Shown piece by piece: positions 2,568 to 26,920 of a stretch of DNA of 64,000 bases (position 1 is the stretch's first letter; every line of letters begins with the position of its first letter). The DNA is from Thermoplasmata archaeon (GTDB lineage Archaea; Thermoplasmatota; Thermoplasmata; GCA-020350865): the NCBI GenBank assembly GCA_020348445.1, contig CP070751.1, positions 3,463,551 through 3,527,550 on the forward strand, in the 5' to 3' direction. The notes beneath the pieces were generated by a model. It did not search any database and was not told the origin of the DNA. It saw only the letters and a list, made by a program, of their open reading frames with translations. A program made the translations under genes and the position numbers.

Positions 2568-5500
2568 TTATTGCGGTCCTATCGTGGTCAGCTCACCACA
2601 CATGGGACACCTGGCCACCATTGGCTGCTCAGGAATCGGTGCCGAAAAGGGATTCTGGCAATGTGGACATTTGTAGCTGAAAGCCACTGGTTGATAGGGA
2701 GGAACCTGCTCCGCTTCTCCAATTTCTGCTAAACCAACCTCCCCTTCAGGGGGCGCCTCCCCCTCCGTAACTATCCCTCCAAAAGCAACCTCACCTTCTG
2801 GGGCCAGGCCTTCTTCTGCGGCCTTACCTCTTTTCCTTTGTATCAATAATAAAACAACGATAACAACGATTACAACTGCCACGACAACCAATATAATCCA
2901 GATCATACCATCTGAGGGTTCCTCGTCTGCCTTTTTCCATTTGCTTGAATCCAAGGGAAATGCATCCTCAGTATCTGGATGCCCGTCATCGTCGTCGTCT
3001 GTATCTGCATTGTTGCCGATACCATCTCCATCTGTGTCGAGCCATTCAGAAGCATCCAAGGGAAAGGCGTCTTCATCATCCAAGTAGCCATCATCGTCGT
3101 CGTCGGTATCTGCATTGTTGCCTTCTCCGTCGGAGTCGGTGTCAAGCCACTCAGTAGAATCTAAAGGAAACGCATCATCTACATCTGAATATCCATCACC
3201 ATCATCATCAGCGTCTGCGTTGTTACCAATTTCATCGGAATCAGTGTCTATCCATTCTGTGTTATCCAAGGGAAATGCATCGTTATCATCCAAATGTCCA
3301 TCATTATCGTCGTCAACATCTTCCACATCCGGAGTGCCATCGTTATCTGTGTCTAATAGCAAATCAATGGCATCCAGGCTCGTATCAATGAAAGCTTCTT
3401 CATATGTTCCAGATATTAGATCGAAGTTAACATATATAATTGAGTTAGCATCTATCTTAAAGTCAGTTCTATCGTTTATGAATGAAAGAGGGATAAGGAT
3501 TTTTAAGGTTGAATTACCAAAGCCAAAGGCTTCAAGGGATTGTGATTCTTGAGAGGTCGTATTTTCAATGCTCACCATGCCTAAAATACAATTAATTGTG
3601 AAGTCAGCATCATCATTATTTTCAGGATCATCGGTTTCGTCCATAAAGAGATATAAGCCATAGTAGTAAATATCGGATTCCACAATCTGGTCCTGGATAG
3701 CCCCTACTACTTCCACTTCATATAGGAGGTAATCTCCAACTTTCCATATCGAGATGTTGGTCATATCGATATTTGGATATCCGCCAACCTGCACCTCATT
3801 CTCGTCCATGACGTCCCCGATCTCATCGATCAGTAAGATCAATGACTCGTTGATGATGTATACCTCAAACCAAATGATAGCATCATTTCCAAAGGTATCG
3901 TTTGCCTTGATATGTACCATAATCCGGCCATCGGACCACGAAGAGGTGTTGATAATGTACGGAGGTGCTAGTGTAGAATATTCTCCCCCATCTATCGAGT
4001 ACATTACAGCGTCCGTATCAGGATCCGTGATATCGAGTTGGATTAATTTCCCGATAGAAATAATGGAATGGTTAAGATCGGGATCAATTGTGATGGTTGG
4101 AGGTGTGGAATCAATTGTGAAGAAGAACCAGGAAGAATTTGAATTGTTTGTTATGTCTATAGCATTGATCAATACTGTGTAATCTCCAGACTCCCAGCCT
4201 GATGTTGGGATTTCAAAAGGATCTGAGAATGGAATGTCTACGCCTTGGTTTACAGAATAATTAGCTTGGAACAGATTTGGATCAACTACTGAAAAGTCCA
4301 GGAGTGTTCCTCCTCCAATGAGTGTGTTGTTCTCGGGTGAATTCAGAACGATTGCAGGTGGTGTCGAATCCACTGTAAAGACAAACCATAAAGAAACAGA
4401 GTTGCCCACCATGTCCAGCGCGTTAATTTGAACTATGTAATCATCATCTGTCCATCCAGTTGTAGTGATATTAAATGGATCGGAAAGTGAGATGTTGGCT
4501 CCCCCGTTAACAGAATAGTTGACTTGTAGTAGGTTTTCATCGACAATTAAAAAGTCTAAAACTGTTCCCTCATTTATAATAGCGTTGTCTTCGGGAGACA
4601 CCAAGATGATATCAGGTGGTATATCATCAATTGTAATATTATACCAGGAAGAATTTAAATTCCCTGCCAAATCCGTTGTATTGATTAGGATAATATAATT
4701 CCCATCTGACCAGCCTGAGGTGGAAATATTGAATGGATCCAAAAGGGGAGTTTCGACCCCTCCATTTACAGAATAGTTAACATGCAAAAGATTTGAATCT
4801 ATGATAGAAAAGTTAAGAACTGTTCCTTCATCTATTATTGAGTTGTTTCCTGGGGACCCAAAGATAATAATGGGTGGTGTGGAATCAATTGTAAAGTAAT
4901 ACCAAGAGGAATTTGAGTTTCCAGCCATATCCACTGCATTTATTTGGACAGTATAATCTCCGTCCGCCAAATCAAATATCGAGATGTTAAAGGGATCTAA
5001 TAAAGAAATGTTGACTCCTCCGTTTATGGAATAATTGACATGCACTAAATGTGGGTCGGAAATTGTGAAGTTTAGAATCGTGCTGTTATGTATGACTGAA
5101 TTATTTTCCGGTGTATTTAGAATGATAATTGGTTTGCTAGAATCGACTGTGAAGTTAAACCAGGAGGAATTTGAGTTTCCTGCCTTATCCAAGGCATTGA
5201 TTTGGACTGTGTAATTTCCATCTGCCCATCCTGCTGTAGAAATATCAAAGGGATCTGAGAGGGAAATGATAGAACCCCCATTTATAGAATAGTTTGTATT
5301 ATTAAAATTGGATTCATCAATAGAAAAGTCGAGGATAGTTCCATTTGGAATAACTGAGTTGTTTTCAGGACTGTTTAATAGAACCTGAGGTTTTGTGGAA
5401 TCTATAGTGAATGAAAACACTGAGGAATTAATATTGCCCGCTTCATCAATTGTATTTATTTGAATATTATAAACATCATCTGACCACCCTGTGGTGGGAA

Positions 5501-8500
5501 TATCATAAGGATCTGTAAGTGGGTTGTTTACTCCTCCGTTTACAGAGTAATTGACATGTGATAGATGCAAGTCTATTATAGAGAAGTCAAGAACCGTTCC
5601 CTCTGTAATCACTGCGTTATTCTCAGGAGTATTCAATATGATTTGAGGCAATGTTGTATCAACTGTAAAGAAATACCAGGATGAATTTGAGTTTCCTACC
5701 AAATCCACGGTATTGATTTGGATTGTATAATCTCCATCAAGCCAGCCAGAAGTGGATATATCAAAGGGATCTGAAAGAGGGATGTTAGGTTCTCCGTTTA
5801 TGGAATAGTTGGCTTGCATTAAATGAGGATCGGTAATTGAAAGGTCTATAATTGCCCCACTGAGTATAATTGAGTTATTTTCTGGTGAATTAAGCTGGAT
5901 TATGGGTTTTGTTGAATCAATGGTAAATAAAAAAGACAAGGAGTATCGATTTCCTGCTGCATCATCGGCAATTATTGTAATTATGTAACTTCCATCAGCC
6001 CAACCAGTAGTGGGAATATCATAAGGTGATGTAAGCGTTTGCTCTGATCCAAAATTAATAGTATATTTGGTTTGTGAGAGGTGAGGGTCGTCAATAGAGA
6101 AGTTCAATGATGTGCCACTGGGGATGATAGATTCATTCGCCGGAGAGTTCAAAATGATCGTAGGTGGTACCGAATCTATCGTAAAGTTATACCAGGAGAA
6201 AGCTGTGTTCCCAGCCGTATCTTGGGCATTAATTTGAACTTTGTAGACTCCATCTGTCCAACCGCTGGTGGTTATGTCATATGGATCAGAGAGAGGGGTA
6301 TCGACTCCTGCATTTACAGAATAATTGACGTGATCTAGATTTGAATCAGAAACCGAGAAGTCCAATAGAGTATCTGCAGGGATAATGGAGTTGTTAACAG
6401 GGGAATTGAGCTGGATTGTGGGTTTTGTGGAATCTATAGTAAAGAAGAACAAGGATGAATTTAGGTTTCCTACTATATCTTCTGCATTGATTAGTATAGT
6501 GTATCCTCCGTCTGCCCATCCCGATGTCGATATATCATATGGATCAGTGAATAAAACATCAGGTTCACCATTTCTGGAGTAGGTGACCTGACTTAAATTG
6601 GGATCTATAATAGAGAAGTCCAATATTGTGCCACTGGGAATGACTGAATTGTTAAACGGGCTGTTTAAAATAATTGTAGGTTTGGTTGAATCTATTATAA
6701 AGGAGTACCAGGAAGAGTTTGAGTTTCCTGCCTGATCTTGCGCATTAATTTGAACTGTGTAGTCTCCATCAGACCAAACGCCGGTGGAAATGTCATATGG
6801 ATCTGAGAGTGGAGTATCAACTCCTGCATTTACTGAATAATTGACGTGATCTAGGTTTGGATCAAAAACCGAAAAGTCCAAGATAGTACCAGCAGGGATA
6901 ATAGAGTTATTAACAGGGGAATTAAGCTGAATTATTGGTTTTGTGGAATCGATTGTAAAGTTGAACCATGAAATGGTTGAATTCCCTGCAATATCTAATG
7001 CATTGATCTGAACAGTATAGTCTTCATCTGCCCATCCCGATGTCGATATATCGAAAGGATCAGAGAGTGAAATATTCAATTCTCCATTTACGGAATAATT
7101 GACGTGATCTAGGTTGGGTTCAATTATAGAGAAATCTAAAATAGTACCAGCTGGGATGATTGAGTTATTTGCTGGGGCGTTTAAGATGATTATTGGAGAA
7201 GCAGAATCTAATGTAAAGAAGTACCAGGAAGAGTTTGAGTTTCCTGCCTCATCTTGCGCATTAATTTGAACTGTATAGCCTCCATCAGCCCATCCAACTG
7301 TTGATATATTATATGGAGCCGGGAGTGTGACATTCGAGCCGCCATTAACTGAATAATTGACGTGATCTAGGTTTATATCAATCACAGAAAAGTTCAAAAA
7401 TGTTCCACCAGGGATTAGGGAATTATTTGCAGGTGAATTAAGAGATATGAAGGGTTTAATTGAATCGATTGTAAAGAAGAAAATCCGAAGGATAGAATGA
7501 TTGCTAAGATCTGTGGCATTTATCGTTACGTTATGTAATCCCTCAATCCAACCTGAGGTTGAAATATCAAATGGTTCTGGGAAAGTCTGTTCTATTCCGC
7601 CATCTATGGAATAATTTACAATATCGAGATCCTCATCATAAACGAGGAAATCAAGGATTACACCTGGTTGGATTACAGAATTGTTTAAAGGATAAATCAA
7701 TTGAATTCTGGGACCTATTCCTTCAATTGGTCCCATTAATGGATAGTAATCATATGATTTTCCTGTTACATTGTCGATATCTACATACCAATCATCCACT
7801 ATCCCATCGCTGCCTTCTATATCCTGATTATGGCCTGTATAGTTATCATATGCTCCTTCAATGGGCTCGTCAAAATCGCTCCAATAGTTACCACCGATAG
7901 GATATGTCATGTTCCAAGTGTTATTACCATCCTCGTCATAAGCTTGGTACGTGTTGAACCAGAGGATATTATGGTAGATGAGGTTGTCACCAGATGTCAA
8001 GTAAATTCCATAATTGAAATTCATGGAGATGTTGTTCTTTGTGATGTTGTTGTCATGGGATAAGGTTTGTATATATATCCCATCGTTGTTGGAAAATATC
8101 CTGTTTGAAGTTATATTGTTGTTATCGCATAAAGATAAACGGATTCCCCACATACTGCCGGAAACGGTGTTGTTCTCGATGTTGTTCCCTGAAGAAGAAT
8201 AAAGGAATATACCTCGCCAGTAAAAATTATGACTGAATATGCTGTTGTTAGATATATCGTTTTTATCTGATTCGGAAAGCCATATACCATAATTGGTGAC
8301 ATTAGAAATTTCACAGTTTTGAATTTCATTTCCTGTGGATTGCTCGATGTAAATTCCGTTCGTGGCGTTGGTGATATTGCAGAATTTAATAGTGGCAAGG
8401 CCTGTTGAGTTTATTTGGATTCCGGTCCAAGTGAACGAGTCATTTGAATTTGTGAACTTAATCATGTTAGGTGGATTCCCCACGGCCTTGAGGGTTCCGT

Positions 8501-8759
8501 TGCCTATGTAAAGTCCATAACTACCGTTGAAAATAACCTCCACACCTGCCTCAATGGTCAGGGTTGCGTTGTTCTCCACATATACATCGCCCTGAATGTA
8601 ATATGGACTGTTTCCTATATCCCATATGTCATTGGATGTTATCTGGCCCCCAGGAATCTCTATTCCCGAGACTGTATTATTTGGTACTATGAGAAGCCCA
8701 CTCAAACACCCAATTACCAATATCCAAATGGTTAAAACCGACGAAATAGCCTTTTTCAT
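2568..8759 (-). CDS. 2063-aa cell-surface protein: signal peptide, beta-helix (NosD-like), 15 Ig-like repeats, shared domain, TSP3-like repeats, TM helix, C-terminal Zn ribbon
   Basis: N-terminal hydrophobic leader; GIxL/NNxI beta-helix repeats; DSTxP...DxAGN Ig-like units; DxDxDG repeats; IWIILVVVAVVIVVIVVLLLI-QRKRGK; CPHC...CPMC. Confidence 0.92.
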   Translation of the reverse strand: MKKAISSVLTIWILVIGCLSGLLIVPNNTVSGIEIPGGQITSNDIWDIGNSPYYIQGDVYVENNATLTIEAGVEVIFNGSYGLYIGNGTLKAVGNPPNMIKFTNSNDSFTWTGIQINSTGLATIKFCNITNATNGIYIEQSTGNEIQNCEISNVTNYGIWLSESDKNDISNNSIFSHNFYWRGIFLYSSSGNNIENNTVSGSMWGIRLSLCDNNNITSNRIFSNNDGIYIQTLSHDNNITKNNISMNFNYGIYLTSGDNLIYHNILWFNTYQAYDEDGNNTWNMTYPIGGNYWSDFDEPIEGAYDNYTGHNQDIEGSDGIVDDWYVDIDNVTGKSYDYYPLMGPIEGIGPRIQLIYPLNNSVIQPGVILDFLVYDEDLDIVNYSIDGGIEQTFPEPFDISTSGWIEGLHNVTINATDLSNHSILRIFFFTIDSIKPFISLNSPANNSLIPGGTFLNFSVIDINLDHVNYSVNGGSNVTLPAPYNISTVGWADGGYTVQINAQDEAGNSNSSWYFFTLDSASPIIILNAPANNSIIPAGTILDFSIIEPNLDHVNYSVNGELNISLSDPFDISTSGWADEDYTVQINALDIAGNSTISWFNFTIDSTKPIIQLNSPVNNSIIPAGTILDFSVFDPNLDHVNYSVNAGVDTPLSDPYDISTGVWSDGDYTVQINAQDQAGNSNSSWYSFIIDSTKPTIILNSPFNNSVIPSGTILDFSIIDPNLSQVTYSRNGEPDVLFTDPYDISTSGWADGGYTILINAEDIVGNLNSSLFFFTIDSTKPTIQLNSPVNNSIIPADTLLDFSVSDSNLDHVNYSVNAGVDTPLSDPYDITTSGWTDGVYKVQINAQDTAGNTAFSWYNFTIDSVPPTIILNSPANESIIPSGTSLNFSIDDPHLSQTKYTINFGSEQTLTSPYDIPTTGWADGSYIITIIADDAAGNRYSLSFLFTIDSTKPIIQLNSPENNSIILSGAIIDLSITDPHLMQANYSINGEPNIPLSDPFDISTSGWLDGDYTIQINTVDLVGNSNSSWYFFTVDTTLPQIILNTPENNAVITEGTVLDFSIIDLHLSHVNYSVNGGVNNPLTDPYDIPTTGWSDDVYNIQINTIDEAGNINSSVFSFTIDSTKPQVLLNSPENNSVIPNGTILDFSIDESNFNNTNYSINGGSIISLSDPFDISTAGWADGNYTVQINALDKAGNSNSSWFNFTVDSSKPIIILNTPENNSVIHNSTILNFTISDPHLVHVNYSINGGVNISLLDPFNISIFDLADGDYTVQINAVDMAGNSNSSWYYFTIDSTPPIIIFGSPGNNSIIDEGTVLNFSIIDSNLLHVNYSVNGGVETPLLDPFNISTSGWSDGNYIILINTTDLAGNLNSSWYNITIDDIPPDIILVSPEDNAIINEGTVLDFLIVDENLLQVNYSVNGGANISLSDPFNITTTGWTDDDYIVQINALDMVGNSVSLWFVFTVDSTPPAIVLNSPENNTLIGGGTLLDFSVVDPNLFQANYSVNQGVDIPFSDPFEIPTSGWESGDYTVLINAIDITNNSNSSWFFFTIDSTPPTITIDPDLNHSIISIGKLIQLDITDPDTDAVMYSIDGGEYSTLAPPYIINTSSWSDGRIMVHIKANDTFGNDAIIWFEVYIINESLILLIDEIGDVMDENEVQVGGYPNIDMTNISIWKVGDYLLYEVEVVGAIQDQIVESDIYYYGLYLFMDETDDPENNDDADFTINCILGMVSIENTTSQESQSLEAFGFGNSTLKILIPLSFINDRTDFKIDANSIIYVNFDLISGTYEEAFIDTSLDAIDLLLDTDNDGTPDVEDVDDDNDGHLDDNDAFPLDNTEWIDTDSDEIGNNADADDDGDGYSDVDDAFPLDSTEWLDTDSDGEGNNADTDDDDDGYLDDEDAFPLDASEWLDTDGDGIGNNADTDDDDDGHPDTEDAFPLDSSKWKKADEEPSDGMIWIILVVVAVVIVVIVVLLLIQRKRGKAAEEGLAPEGEVAFGGIVTEGEAPPEGEVGLAEIGEAEQVPPYQPVAFSYKCPHCQNPFSAPIPEQPMVARCPMCGELTTIGPQ
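3855..7721 (-). repeat. 15 tandem 86-aa (258-nt) Ig-like coding repeats
   Basis: Units counted in the translation, consensus DSTxPxIxLNSPxNNSxIxxGTxLDFSIxDPNLxHVNYSVNGGxxxxLxDPFDISTxGWxDGxYTVQINAxDxAGNSNSSWYxFTI; span about 15 x 258 nt. Confidence 0.9.
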
Positions 8760-9890: not shown

Positions 9891-9976
9891 TGGCCCACAT
9901 AACCAACTTTATGGATTTAAAGAATTCGAACTTATTTTCTTGTATTCTTTTCCAATAACGGTGTTATTGGGTGTGA

Positions 9977-10075
9977 GCCCTTAGGCTTAAGATAACAGCT
10001 CTTTATTGCATAACCTAAGGGCTAAGTGGACTATGAAAAAATCATGTAGGAAATGGAATAGGCCACGAAGGAGGG
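9977..10075. repeat. Dispersed 99-bp structured intergenic element, copy 1
   Basis: 88/99 identical without gaps to 23246-23344; perfect stem GCCCTTAGG/CCTAAGGGC plus second stem GTGG.CTAT/ATAG.CCAC. Confidence 0.9.
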
Positions 10076-10172
10076 CGTCCTTGGGGGAGGGAAAAGGTAA
10101 TATCAAAGATAAAAACTGAAGAATGTCGTTTCTTTCAAAAACCTTCTTAAGGCTCATATCCATTCTGAATCC

Positions 10173-23104: not shown

Positions 23105-23245
23105 GGACTTTTTCCTCGCAACGAGTATTGTATGGGTTGATATTTACCTTTTTTGTTTGATTTATATGAACAAATCCTTTTCATAGTTTTTTTAGTTCCT
23201 GGGTGGGTGGAGGGAGGTAGGTGGTGGGTAGATCTTTATGCGGGG

Positions 23246-23344
23246 GCCCTTAGGCTTAAGATATCAACTCTTTATCGCATAACCTAAGGGCAAAGTGGCC
23301 TATGAATTAATCATATAGGATATGGAATAGACCACGATGGAGGG
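23246..23344. repeat. Dispersed 99-bp structured intergenic element, copy 2
   Basis: Same orientation as 9977-10075, 11 substitutions; flanked by G-rich tracts. Confidence 0.9.
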
Positions 23345-23424
23345 GGGATGGTGGGAGGGATGAAGATGATAGATAAAAAACGATATCAAAAATATATTAT
23401 CACCCAAACCCAATTCCTTATGTC

Positions 23425-24177
23425 ATGAAACTCGAACCAATCCCAAATGAACCTGCTCTACTTCTAAAAGGCAAGAAAAATACCTTGATCGTGGCCGACC
23501 TTCATATTGGAATAGAAGCCGAGCTTAGAGAATCAGGGATAAACATTCCCAGCCAGACAGAGAAAATGGCATTGCACCTCATTGAACTTTGTAAAGAGCA
23601 TGAGATTCACGACCTGGTTATTGTGGGGGATGTGAAGCATAATGTTCCAATGACGAGCGGACAGGAGTACTTCGAAATCCCAAGGATTTTTGAGAGATTG
23701 AAAGAACATGTGGAAAAGGCCCACATCACGATGGGAAACCACGATGGGAATCTTAAAAACTATCTCCCGGATTGGGTAAAAATCCACGGAACCAAGGGTT
23801 TTACTTATAAAGGAATTGGGATTTTCCACGGCCATACATGGCCTAAAAAAGAAGTCATGCAGTGCAGCCAAGTAGTAATTGCCCATCAGCATCCCACGAT
23901 ATTGTTCGTAGAAACACTCGGGGAAAGGGATACCAGGCAATGCTGGGTGAAAGCAGATTTCATTACCAAGGTTACAGAAGAACGTTATCCCAAATCAAAT
24001 CCAAAGCTCATAATCATGCCCACTTTCAACGATCTTTTAGGAGGAATCGCGGTAAACGAGAGGGATTCTGAGCTTCTAGGACCAATTATGAAAAACAAAC
24101 TCGTGGATTTGGATAATGCCGAAATTTACCTACTAGATGGTACATTTTTAGGGAAACTTAGTGATTTGAGGGTGTAA
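23425..24177 (+). CDS. Metallophosphoesterase (COG1407-like, Lhr-associated)
   Basis: ADLHIG, GDVKH, GNHDG, FHGH, AHQHP motifs. Confidence 0.9.
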   Translation: MKLEPIPNEPALLLKGKKNTLIVADLHIGIEAELRESGINIPSQTEKMALHLIELCKEHEIHDLVIVGDVKHNVPMTSGQEYFEIPRIFERLKEHVEKAHITMGNHDGNLKNYLPDWVKIHGTKGFTYKGIGIFHGHTWPKKEVMQCSQVVIAHQHPTILFVETLGERDTRQCWVKADFITKVTEERYPKSNPKLIIMPTFNDLLGGIAVNERDSELLGPIMKNKLVDLDNAEIYLLDGTFLGKLSDLRV

Positions 24178-24178
24178 G

Positions 24179-26920
24179 ATGAGTTTTGATATGCTTTCTC
24201 CTGCTATTATAAAAGCTATTGAAAAGAAGGGATGGGGAGAATTAACTGAGCCTCAAAAAAAGGCCATTCCAGTGGTTTTAGATGACAAGGATCTGCTTCT
24301 TATCGCTCCCACAGGTTATGGAAAGACCGAGGCTGTAATGTTACCGCTTTTTCACAAGATTCTAAAAGAAAAACCAGAGAGAATCAGCCTTCTTTACATA
24401 ACACCATTAAGAGCACTTAACAGGGACATGCTGCAAAGAATGCTATGGTTCGCCAACGAACTGGATATTAAGGTTGCGGTGCGTCACGGCGACACTCCCC
24501 AGCATGAAAGGGCAAAAATGTCAAAGTCACCACCTGACATCCTCATCACCACTCCTGAGACGTTTCAGATCATGTTCACTGGCAAGCACCTCAGAAGGCA
24601 TTTAAGTAATGTGAAATGGGTGGTAATCGACGAGATCCATGAACTTGCCCAGGATGAAAGAGGTGCCCAGCTTGCTGTAGCAATGGAAAGGTTATGTCAA
24701 TTAACAGGAAGGGAGGTTCAGAGAATTGGATTATCAGCAACAGTGGGCAGCCCTTCGGAAATAGCACGGTTTTTAGGAGGAGTACAAAGAAAGGTGGAAA
24801 TCATAAGAACCAGGCTCCCAAAGGATATCAAAATACAGGTGGAGAGCCCCATTCCAAAAAAAGAGGATGAGAAGCTTGCAATGGAACTTGGCACAGAATC
24901 CAAACAGGCCGTCTGTCTAAGAAGGGGAAGGGAACTGGTGGAAGAACATAGGTCAACCCTATACTTTGTAAATACAAGGGATACTGCAGAGACCCTTGCC
25001 ACAAGATACCATCTATGGGACAGTGCCTTTCCAGTTGGAGTACATCATGGCTCACTATCCAAGGGTGTTAGGGTCCAGATGGAGGAGGATTTCAAATCCG
25101 AGAAATTAAAGGGTCTGATATGCACATCCTCACTGGAACTTGGAATAGATGTGGGTAGTGCAGATTTCACAATACAGTACAACTCCCCGAGACAGGTGAC
25201 CAGACTGGTTCAGAGAGTGGGAAGAGCAGGTCATGCAGTTGGAGAGGTTTCCAAAGGAACTATCATAGCCATATCCAATGATGACGTACTAGAGAGCTGT
25301 GCAATTACAAGAAGGGCACTTGCCGAGAAAATCGAAGCCTTTAAAATTAGGGAAAATCCACTATCTGTCTTAGCCAATCAGATCCTCGCAATCGCCGTGA
25401 CCTCCAAGGACAATACCCTTAAAAGCTGCTATTCACTGATTAAAAAGGCCTACCCATTTCGAAATTTGAAACAAAAAACGTTCCTGGATGTTGTGGAACT
25501 TTTAAGGGATGAAAGGGTCCTGTGGATTGAAGATGAAAGATTTGGAAGAAAAAGACCCTCATTCAACTACTTTTATGATAACCTATCCATGATCCCTGAC
25601 GAGAGAACTTTTAAGGTCGTTGATATAACAACCAGGAAAACCATTGGAACCTTGGACGAAGGATTCACAGCCAATTACATTCAACCTCATGCACGAATCA
25701 TTATTAAGGGTCGACCATGGGAAGTTGTGGAGTTCGAGGAGGATATACTTGTTACCCCCTCAGCACTTGTTGGTGCAGTGCCAAATTGGGTAGGAGAGGA
25801 GATTCCTGTTCCAATAGAAGTGGCCCAAGAGGTGGGAAGGATAAGAAGAATGGGGGACCTAGGGGGATATCCTATTGATGATGGTGCTAAAAAAATATAC
25901 TTTGATACCCTAAAAAAACAGAAAAAGCAACATCCAGTGCCTACTGATAGACTGATCACAATCGAATCTGACAAGCGAACGATCATAGTAAATGCATGTC
26001 TTGGAAGCAAGGTAAACGAGACAGTGGGAATGCTGCTTTCAACTCTTCTCGCGGCAAGGGTGGGAGAGAGCGTTGGTATGAGAACAGACCCTTACCGAAT
26101 CATTCTGGATCTGCCAACTCCCATGAATCCTGATATCGTAAAAGCAATTCTTCTTGAAACAGAACCAGAGGGAGTTGAAGATATCATTCGAATGGCTCTG
26201 AAACACTCCTCATATCTGAGATGGACATTAATTAATGTGGCTAAGAAATTCTGTGCACTTGAAAAAGAAGTGGATTACAAGAGGATCTCCATCAAGAGAC
26301 TAGCTGCCGCTTTCATGGACACACCTTTATATTCAGAAACAGTGGATAAAACAATCTGGGAAAGGATGGATATTCAAAAGACAAAGGAGGTCCTTCAGAG
26401 CATACAGGACAGGGAAATAGACCTTCGAGTAACTAGCCTTTCACCCATTGGACTAGAGGGTGTGGAAGCTTTCAGAAGACTCGTTGCTCCCCAGAAACCT
26501 GATCGGGCAATTCTAATGACCTTGAAACACCGGCTCGAGGACGAGAGAGTCAAACTTTTGTGCCTTTCCTGCAAGAGGGAATACTTGAAGAGAATAAAGA
26601 ACATCCCAGAAAAGATAACTTGTCAGAACTGCGGCGGAAAGATGATAGCCGCCGTGCCCACCTACGAGGATGCAGGGCCCATTCTTCGAAAAAAGAAACC
26701 CAAGGAAAAAGAGAAAAGGACTATAAGGAAATTATTCACAAACGCAAACCTGATTCTGAGTCACGGTAAAAAAGCAATTCTGGCAATGAGGGCAAGGGGA
26801 GTCGGCCCAAAGACTGCCGCTCGAATCCTTGCCATGCACTACGAGACCGAAGAGGAGTTTCTAAGGGAGATTTTATCGGCAGAGATTCTGTATGCAAGGA
26901 CGAGAAGGTTTTGGGATTGA
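24179..26920 (+). CDS. lhr: Lhr-family DEAD/DEAH helicase
   Basis: APTGYGKT, ITPLRAL, DEIH, GLSAT, HHGSL, SLELGID, QRVGRAGH; C-terminal Cys motif and RTRRFWD end. Confidence 0.93.
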   Translation: MSFDMLSPAIIKAIEKKGWGELTEPQKKAIPVVLDDKDLLLIAPTGYGKTEAVMLPLFHKILKEKPERISLLYITPLRALNRDMLQRMLWFANELDIKVAVRHGDTPQHERAKMSKSPPDILITTPETFQIMFTGKHLRRHLSNVKWVVIDEIHELAQDERGAQLAVAMERLCQLTGREVQRIGLSATVGSPSEIARFLGGVQRKVEIIRTRLPKDIKIQVESPIPKKEDEKLAMELGTESKQAVCLRRGRELVEEHRSTLYFVNTRDTAETLATRYHLWDSAFPVGVHHGSLSKGVRVQMEEDFKSEKLKGLICTSSLELGIDVGSADFTIQYNSPRQVTRLVQRVGRAGHAVGEVSKGTIIAISNDDVLESCAITRRALAEKIEAFKIRENPLSVLANQILAIAVTSKDNTLKSCYSLIKKAYPFRNLKQKTFLDVVELLRDERVLWIEDERFGRKRPSFNYFYDNLSMIPDERTFKVVDITTRKTIGTLDEGFTANYIQPHARIIIKGRPWEVVEFEEDILVTPSALVGAVPNWVGEEIPVPIEVAQEVGRIRRMGDLGGYPIDDGAKKIYFDTLKKQKKQHPVPTDRLITIESDKRTIIVNACLGSKVNETVGMLLSTLLAARVGESVGMRTDPYRIILDLPTPMNPDIVKAILLETEPEGVEDIIRMALKHSSYLRWTLINVAKKFCALEKEVDYKRISIKRLAAAFMDTPLYSETVDKTIWERMDIQKTKEVLQSIQDREIDLRVTSLSPIGLEGVEAFRRLVAPQKPDRAILMTLKHRLEDERVKLLCLSCKREYLKRIKNIPEKITCQNCGGKMIAAVPTYEDAGPILRKKKPKEKEKRTIRKLFTNANLILSHGKKAILAMRARGVGPKTAARILAMHYETEEEFLREILSAEILYARTRRFWD

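Follow-up and report, generated by a model that had tools for sequence, protein, structure and literature searches.

A strand-asymmetric two-hairpin element set at a fixed point of a dispersed G-rich box in one genus of uncultured Thermoplasmata archaea

The window analysed here, a 64,000-nucleotide stretch of a Thermoplasmata archaeon genome, carries two copies of a two-hairpin element that is multi-copy, genus-restricted, covarying and strand-asymmetric, has a fixed insertion point and orientation, is missing from most orthologous sites in sister genomes, and groups genome by genome. It is apparently undescribed and confined to one genus of uncultured archaea. We give about an even chance to its being a non-autonomous single-strand-hairpin module for mobility or recombination, which resembles REP and IS200 ends in its working and lies outside the known families. 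In the proposed mechanism, the element would be the ~96-nt core of a gene-less repeat whose two hairpins would work on a single strand, most probably as single-stranded DNA that folds while the repeat inserts, excises or recombines. A putative enzyme would set the core down 3' of a top-strand G-run, always at one point and facing one way. In the two-hairpin subfamily this point falls between G9 and G10 of a G-rich box, 16 nt long, which is itself repeated at dispersed sites immediately 5' of promoters; in a sister subfamily it is the G-rich reverse complement of a tRNA gene 3' end.

The two copies in the window, copy A (9977-10075) and copy B (23246-23344), are identical at 88 of 99 positions in an ungapped, co-oriented alignment, and the match (blastn E = 4e-31, whole 5.2-Mb assembly) places their likeness far past chance. 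The 11 differences, at element positions 19, 22, 31, 47, 54, 62, 63, 70, 76, 86 and 93, spare the stems, except for a paired change at 54/86, the mismatched position of hairpin 2, which is A.G in copy A and C.A in copy B. Both copies sit in divergent intergenic regions between unrelated genes: copy A between an EamA transporter gene (-) and TYW3 (+), copy B between a gene for a winged-helix (wHTH) regulator (-) and a metallophosphoesterase-Lhr helicase pair (+). Identity, orientation, intact stems with 54/86 changing together and genomic setting had all been described in the initial annotation, and the recomputed alignment, position list and neighbouring genes bear it out. The metallophosphoesterase gene and, directly after it, the Lhr-type helicase gene (DEAD, DEAD_assoc and WH_Lhr domains) occupy 23425-26920 (+) and are the known Lhr-MPE pairing. 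Elsewhere in the window, 2568-8759 (-) encodes what is probably a large surface protein, 2063 aa long, whose domains include NosD/beta-helix, PKD and numerous Ig-like ones. The features of the two sites are as follows.

9969..9976, +: left half of the split G-box of copy A, GGGTGTGA, read directly and preceded by T-rich TTATT; the next G (9977) opens hairpin 1
9977..10022, +: hairpin 1 of copy A, from the consensus fold and pair counts
10026..10066, +: hairpin 2 of copy A, GTGGACTAT / ATAGGCCAC, with a single central A.G mismatch
10067..10097, +: linker GAA of copy A, then right half-box and G-rich tail, GGAGGGCGTCCTTGGGGGAGGGAAAAGG
23201..23231, +: solo (complete, unsplit) G-box just 5' of copy B, GGGTGGGTGGAGGGAGGTAGGTGGTGGGTAG, orthologous to the box at the same site in sister genome G004
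23240..23245, +: left half-box of copy B, degenerate, GCGGGG
23246..23291, +: hairpin 1 of copy B, from the fold and the A/B comparison
23295..23335, +: hairpin 2 of copy B, GTGGCCTAT / ATAGACCAC, with a central C.A mismatch
23336..23360, +: linker GAT of copy B, then right half-box and G-rich tail, GGAGGGGGGATGGTGGGAGGGA
23385..23402, +: promoter-like box of the metallophosphoesterase gene, 3' of copy B, ATCAAAAATATATTATCAC, from comparison of orthologous regions

Hairpin 1 consists of a 9-bp stem (GCCCTTAGG/CCTAAGGGC), a one-base bulge (C) and three invariant pairs, UUA/UAA; in copy A its loop starts with AGAUA and ends with CA. Hairpin 2 has a 9-bp stem, GTGGnCTAT/ATAGnCCAC, with a central mismatch, for which other copies carry the covarying alternatives GTGTTCCTT/AAGAGGAACAC and GTGCTCC/GGAGCAC, and its loop in copy A holds the conserved motifs GAAU and GGAAAUGGA. 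Both hairpins covary. Among the 14 copies of the same genome, 90.5% of the cells are paired and both sides of a pair have changed in 14 cells (0/500 shuffles). We built a covariance model, R1, as the initial annotation had proposed; in an alignment of 36 matches from five genomes, where the structure is favoured by construction because the alignment was fitted to the covariance model, both-side changes affect 16 of 21 pairs in 84 cells (0/500 shuffles), and slid controls are 33-41% paired. The unpaired motifs CUUAAGAUA, CAUAAC, CAAAGUG, GAAU and GGAAAUGGAAUAG are kept across species while the loop interiors drift, and this conservation would suit a functional RNA or a protein-binding site just as well as a mobile module. 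Three copies are decayed or rearranged: one (L011, G000:C1:2969887-2970099, G000 being this assembly) has an insertion of ~90 nt within the hairpin-2 loop, one (G000:C1:205032-205100) lacks the segment from the hairpin-1 loop to the hairpin-2 loop, and one (G000:C1:2155509-2155579) is a remnant that has kept no more than the 5' arm and the beginning of the hairpin-1 loop.

Good folding is confined to one strand. In the 29 two-hairpin copies, the non-Watson-Crick cells comprise 29 G.T/T.G in nine columns versus three A.C/C.A in two columns, counts that are not independent of one another because the copies are related. A tandem G.A/A.G (CTGAGG/CCGAAG) stands in place of two A-T pairs in 18-20 of the 29 copies, and on the complementary strand it would read C.T/T.C. 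When energies are computed for DNA, eight of ten copies fold better as the element strand than as the complementary one. Strand-biased cytosine deamination, and not selection, could be behind part of the G.T excess; it cannot account for the tandem G.A, which is conserved. A K-turn or L7Ae-binding hairpin was considered for the tandem G.A and rejected by eye: the tandem lies in a symmetric 2x2 loop with Watson-Crick pairs on both sides, and the only bulge near it is a single base two pairs away.

The family was searched with BLAST, nhmmer and R1 (from alignment A2) in this assembly and in relatives, which are public metagenome-assembled genomes labelled Thermoplasmata or Methanomassiliicoccales. 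G000 is made of 354 contigs joined by 100-N runs (353 runs) and is not a closed chromosome, and the window is located in a 155-kb piece of it; G001 (CP070739.1) is likewise an N-joined scaffold, whose skew merely follows the local gene strand. For these two genomes, therefore, no meaning attaches to distances over long ranges of coordinates or to any analysis by replichore. G000 contains 14 full two-hairpin copies, each above 90 bits and at 74-91% identity, together with ~35 weaker matches to R1, many of which are single hairpin-1 modules arrayed beside tRNA genes; all copies in this genome are intergenic. Among 41 genomes of the class (G000 and 40 relatives), the five members of one genus were all matched by R1, and the remaining 36 yielded nothing but a single 22-bit fragment. 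One extra true copy with the same layout was found in a metagenome contig (L171), and a loop-pattern scan of metagenome and viral contigs returned matches that were nearly all due to chance, with no viral copy that had a stem. Rfam 15 gave no match at the gathering score in the 64-kb window, and in five loci holding copies it gave nothing on the element at E<=1, the sole real match being a neighbouring tRNA. The initial annotation had suggested counting copies by BLAST and scanning Rfam, and had staked its reading on there being more than two copies, covariation in relatives and no known family; the copies number 14 or more, covary strongly and match nothing in Rfam. No two copies are identical and the closest pair reaches just 96%, so that recent activity is not demonstrable.

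The core is set in a separate dispersed repeat, the G-box, an intergenic sequence composed of a T-rich patch, GGGTGGGNGGAGGGGG, four nucleotides and GGATGGAGGG. Solo boxes occur at ~33 intergenic sites in G000 in the form ttATT-GGGTGGGNGGAGGGGG-nnnt-GGATGGAGGG. They frequently come as tandem pairs, spaced 50-90 nt, and the nearest gene end is usually 60-125 nt away; beyond the box at 23201-23231 of the window, examples lie at G000:C1:235458, 674968, 834769, 3936467 and 5018512. The solo box has the unsplit joint GGGTGGGAG|GAGGGGG, and filled sites read tttATT-GGGTGGGAG-core-GGAGGGGG-taagg, with the left flank GGGTGGGAG present in 10 of the 14 own-genome copies. Excising the 96-nt core (CCCTTAGG...CCACGATG) from a filled site gives the solo consensus exactly, and we propose that the solo boxes are either targets or excision products of the element. 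The weaker similarity that had been noted on the 3' side of the two copies is the right half of this box, itself a repeat. Having at least four G-runs, the G-box could form a quadruplex.

The point and direction of insertion are fixed with respect to the G-rich strand. All 29 copies of the core are oriented alike relative to this strand. A second subgroup, like the copies of G002, has the core one G-run further on, behind a complete box. The left flank ends in a G-run in all copies (GGGAG, GGGTG, AGGAG and similar), with no single tetra- or pentanucleotide target; both flanks are G-rich on the same strand, and their left and right variants are uncorrelated. Neither terminal inverted repeats nor target-site duplications were found among the copies, the latter in keeping with what had been seen at the first two. 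Two further candidates were discarded: TGTCAAC, which lies ~45 nt upstream of the copies in G001 and G002, is not enriched at solo boxes (3/35 versus a 9% background), and an origin of hairpin 2 or the G-box as a copy of a tRNA end was rejected, as no tRNA with a matching end was found.

Hairpin 1 also occurs as a module behind tRNA genes. Its design, a variable stem of 8-10 bp, a loop YUUAAGA...AUAA and then CAAAG, is shared by every one of the 29 two-hairpin copies and by ~40 modules that are tRNA-linked or stand in arrays, and R1 matches the tRNA-linked modules at E 1e-12 to 1e-5. In the tRNA-linked arrays (G000:C1:4082932-4083428, 644614-644845 and 4783840-4784176; loci L028 and L029), each unit runs from the reverse complement of the tRNA end through hairpin 1, CAAAG and a sense copy of the tRNA end to an AT-rich spacer that begins with GAAT, and the last 'unit' is the tRNA gene itself. 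The G-run that these modules follow is the reverse complement of the tRNA acceptor and T stems, and hairpin 2 is represented in the arrays by the sense copy paired with the tRNA gene's own end. Their hairpin-1 stems are wholly different (GTGTTCGAG, GTCTTTCAG, GCCATTAAG and others), whereas the CTTAAGA...ATAA loop ends and CAAAG are fixed.

The two-hairpin element thus shares with the tRNA-linked modules the hairpin-1 design, the bulge, the UUA/UAA pairs, the CAAAG linker, a G-rich 5' flank and the restriction to one genus. The two differ in their flanks, which are a direct and an inverted copy of the neighbouring tRNA 3' end in the tRNA-linked modules and the G-box halves in the two-hairpin element, and in hairpin 2, which is a fixed part of the latter. 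For most two-hairpin copies, the nearest tRNA is 16-220 kb off in the concatenated, N-joined coordinates of the assembly. The split G-box, the ~35 further relatives and this kinship with modules behind tRNA genes were overlooked in the initial annotation. At G000:C1:4640736-4643566, 15 tRNA genes are densely packed on a single strand; several have atypical ends, and the group looks to have been acquired as a tRNA island, not to be native.

Orthologous sites are mostly empty in the sister genomes, where a search for empty sites had been advised at the outset. Six filled loci of G000 were set against four sister genomes in 20 locus-by-genome comparisons, and a two-hairpin copy fills the site in just one of the 20, the TP_methylase site of G003. 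At the TYW3 (copy A) and metallophosphoesterase (copy B) loci, no sister carries the element (R1 <=13 bits, filters off), and the flanking genes are conserved and syntenic; G004 has an unsplit G-box at both, reading AGGGTGGGAGGAGGGGG at the site of copy A. Three sister genomes are empty at the archease locus. In G001, the ThyA-like and cyclophilin-like loci have conserved flanks on both sides with neither box nor core, which corresponds to an indel of ~190 nt. An empty orthologous site cannot by itself separate insertion from precise deletion.

Grouping of the copies follows the genome and not the locus. A copy from the same genome is the nearest neighbour for 28 of 29 copies, and support for the genome-specific clades is 97-100%; the G000 and G003 copies at one shared locus match at only 75% and fall each among the other copies of the respective genome. 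As judged from these sequence relationships, the grouping would reflect lineage-specific spread, possibly by re-insertion at a favoured site, or gene conversion among copies. In G002, the similarity of a near-identical pair (96%) stops exactly at the outer edges of the box and the tail, which marks the bounds of the duplicating unit.

The filled and empty sites, the fixed and oriented insertion point, the genome-wise grouping and the lack of a promoter or terminator favour a mobile module over a small structured ncRNA family or a cis-acting RNA, which would be transcribed from the element strand and read by a protein or target RNA, its gene copies spreading with whatever moves the G-box unit. 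We regard such an RNA as unlikely. Strong covariation in both helices, G.U wobbles and tandem sheared G.A on one strand only, conserved unpaired motifs beside drifting loop interiors and the intergenic position of every copy all suit it; however, no Rfam family was matched, the core splits a sequence that is also found intact, and of six orthologous loci compared, five lack the element in sister genomes. Within 70 nt upstream, the 29 copies have no TATA or BRE at a fixed position, just a short A/T patch that abuts the box, so that a transcript starting 22-25 nt past the patch would begin inside hairpin 1, and no oligo-T terminator was found within ~100 nt downstream; a promoter and terminator of the element's own were thus rejected. 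A promoter within the hairpin-1 loop was also rejected, as TTAAGA/TCTTAA is not enriched 15-60 nt before start codons. A riboswitch or leader is unlikely because the downstream genes (TYW3, metallophosphoesterase, ThyA-like, archease, TP_methylase, cyclophilin-like, radical SAM and GT2) have no common function. Furthermore, the promoter-like box ATCAAAAATATATTATCAC, located between copy B and the start codon, is conserved in all four sister genomes whether the element is present or absent, which suggests that copy B lies upstream of its neighbour's promoter and outside the mRNA leader. Under the mobile-module proposal, the folded strand would be DNA and not RNA.

A promoter-like box of TYW3, CAAAAC(C)TTCTTAAG, was observed at 10133-10160 of the window and at the orthologous sites (L062-L064), conserved in four genomes. 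This box, CTTCTTAAG, resembles the hairpin-1 loop motif and contains the reverse complement of the loop start (CTTAAGAA); since the loop motif is not enriched in promoter zones, the likeness is probably a coincidence.

If the element is a mobile module, it would be moved by an enzyme. In bacteria, REP, BIME and REPIN palindromes are mobilised by RAYT (Y1 HUH) transposases (PMC3116915, PMC3733652, PMC3337134), and the REP is a palindrome of 20-40 nt with a conserved 5' GTAG or CGTC tetranucleotide (PMC3733652). A search for Y1 genes with similar ends, as the initial annotation had suggested, found Y1 transposase genes (PF01797) in all five carrier genomes and no copy of the element within 1.5 kb of the six loci examined (R1, filters off; best 9.6 bits). 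A 661-bp IS200-like element present in two identical copies has hairpins unrelated to the family, and the region around paired Y1 genes has no family hairpins. The latter pair, two divergent IS200-type genes ~260 nt apart (G000:C1:4214534-4215446, with equivalents in G001-G003 and none evident in G004), is followed by a long-range inverted repeat, AAGTCACGTAC...GTACGTGACTT, and makes up an IS-like unit that shows no connection with the hairpin family. A RAYT link was rejected on the lack of copies near the examined Y1 loci, TnpB with omega-RNA for want of a real TnpB match, and an IS110 bridge RNA because PF01548 occurs in G000 only and is absent from the four other carriers; guide loops of the bridge-RNA kind were rejected as well, the variable loops matching the flanks no better than shuffled controls. 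Altogether, no enzyme tied to the element was found in the search of six Y1 loci, TnpB and IS110.

Comparison with known systems revealed likenesses in working together with differences in build. Like REP and REPIN, the element is short, gene-less, intergenic and lineage-specific, its stems are kept by compensatory change, and it would act as a folded single strand. It lacks the GTAG/CGTC tag, its stems beginning with GCCC or GTCC (hairpin 1) and GTGG, GTGT or GTGC (hairpin 2); unlike a REPIN, which is made of two inverted REPs, it has, in each of the 29 copies, two different hairpins that follow one another on the same strand; and whereas REP and REPIN are bacterial and number hundreds of copies, it is archaeal, numbers tens, lies inside a G-rich box and flanks none of the examined Y1 genes (six loci). 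To our knowledge, hairpin repeats of the REP/REPIN type, well studied in bacteria, have hardly been described in archaea. With the ends of IS200/IS605, the element shares a hairpin near each end and apparently also strand- and orientation-specific insertion 3' of a short target without duplication, its own target being a G-run of varying sequence. IS200/IS605 excision is precise and would leave the target intact. The differences are that hairpins 1 and 2 are mutually dissimilar, that no full-length parent element and no TnpB were found, and that the sole IS200-like element with definable ends in G000 has other hairpins than the two-hairpin family. The initial annotation had left the choice between an ncRNA and an ssDNA-hairpin element; in function the evidence leans towards the second option, whereas membership of the REP/REPIN or IS200/IS605-end families does not hold. 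Correia/NEMIS-type repeats have terminal inverted repeats, a TA target duplication and DDE enzymes. The element resembles them in being intergenic, ~100-150 bp long, promoter-proximal and hairpin-forming, and differs from them and from classical MITEs of the DDE type in having neither terminal inverted repeats nor target duplication.

A single-strand-folded recombination site for a tyrosine or other recombinase, similar to integron attC or a hairpin att, in which the G-boxes would be junctions of exchangeable gene or promoter cassettes, seems to us quite improbable. Like attC, the element has imperfect, strand-specific hairpins with conserved mismatches, keeps structure over sequence, lies at gene junctions and has a fixed orientation relative to a G-rich junction repeat, and the G-boxes are often tandem and beside promoters. 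However, the attC core sites R'' (RYYYAAC) and R' (GTTRRRY) are seen at neither hairpin foot (alignments A2 and A5, read by eye), and the genes flanking copies A and B are conserved housekeeping genes, syntenic in the sisters, and not cassette-like.

Least probable, and in our view very doubtful, is a regulatory or architectural site in duplex DNA, for example one at which a cruciform or palindrome is recognised by a transcription factor or chromatin protein and two divergent genes are tuned from upstream of their promoters: it would suit the 10 of 16 own-genome copies that lie in divergent regions 79-118 nt before a co-oriented start codon, the three of four G001 copies 82-84 nt before one and the 10-65 nt by which the unit ends short of promoter-like boxes, yet 5 of the 16 copies face a gene's 3' end, orthologous genes in sister species work without the element, the stems covary freely while the loop ends are fixed, most copies lack arms that are true inverted repeats (G.A/A.G is kept in CTGAGG/CCGAAG in place of complementarity), and the wobbles are one-sided, neither they nor G.A mattering for duplex binding.

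Returning to a mobile hairpin module as the preferred reading, a wider and more tentative proposal, which we think possible though rather doubtful, is that the core and its tRNA-linked relatives represent a new class of archaeal mobile hairpins. These would insert orientation-specifically 3' of G-rich single-stranded runs, namely G-boxes or the antisense of tRNA 3' ends, through an enzyme, or through a mechanism tied to replication, that has no kinship with RAYT/IS200, integron or DDE systems. The family might instead be a structured RNA of a new class, borne on such a unit. With the covariance model R1, further metagenome-assembled genomes can be annotated for the family. Being compact, strongly structured, strand- and site-specific, and found in one genus in two host contexts, promoter-side G-rich boxes and tRNA gene ends, the family offers a tractable case for a new archaeal transaction of single-stranded DNA (or RNA). 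Since the copies, which lie 40-65 nt ahead of promoters, are present or absent between sister species, they may contribute to regulatory differences between these species.
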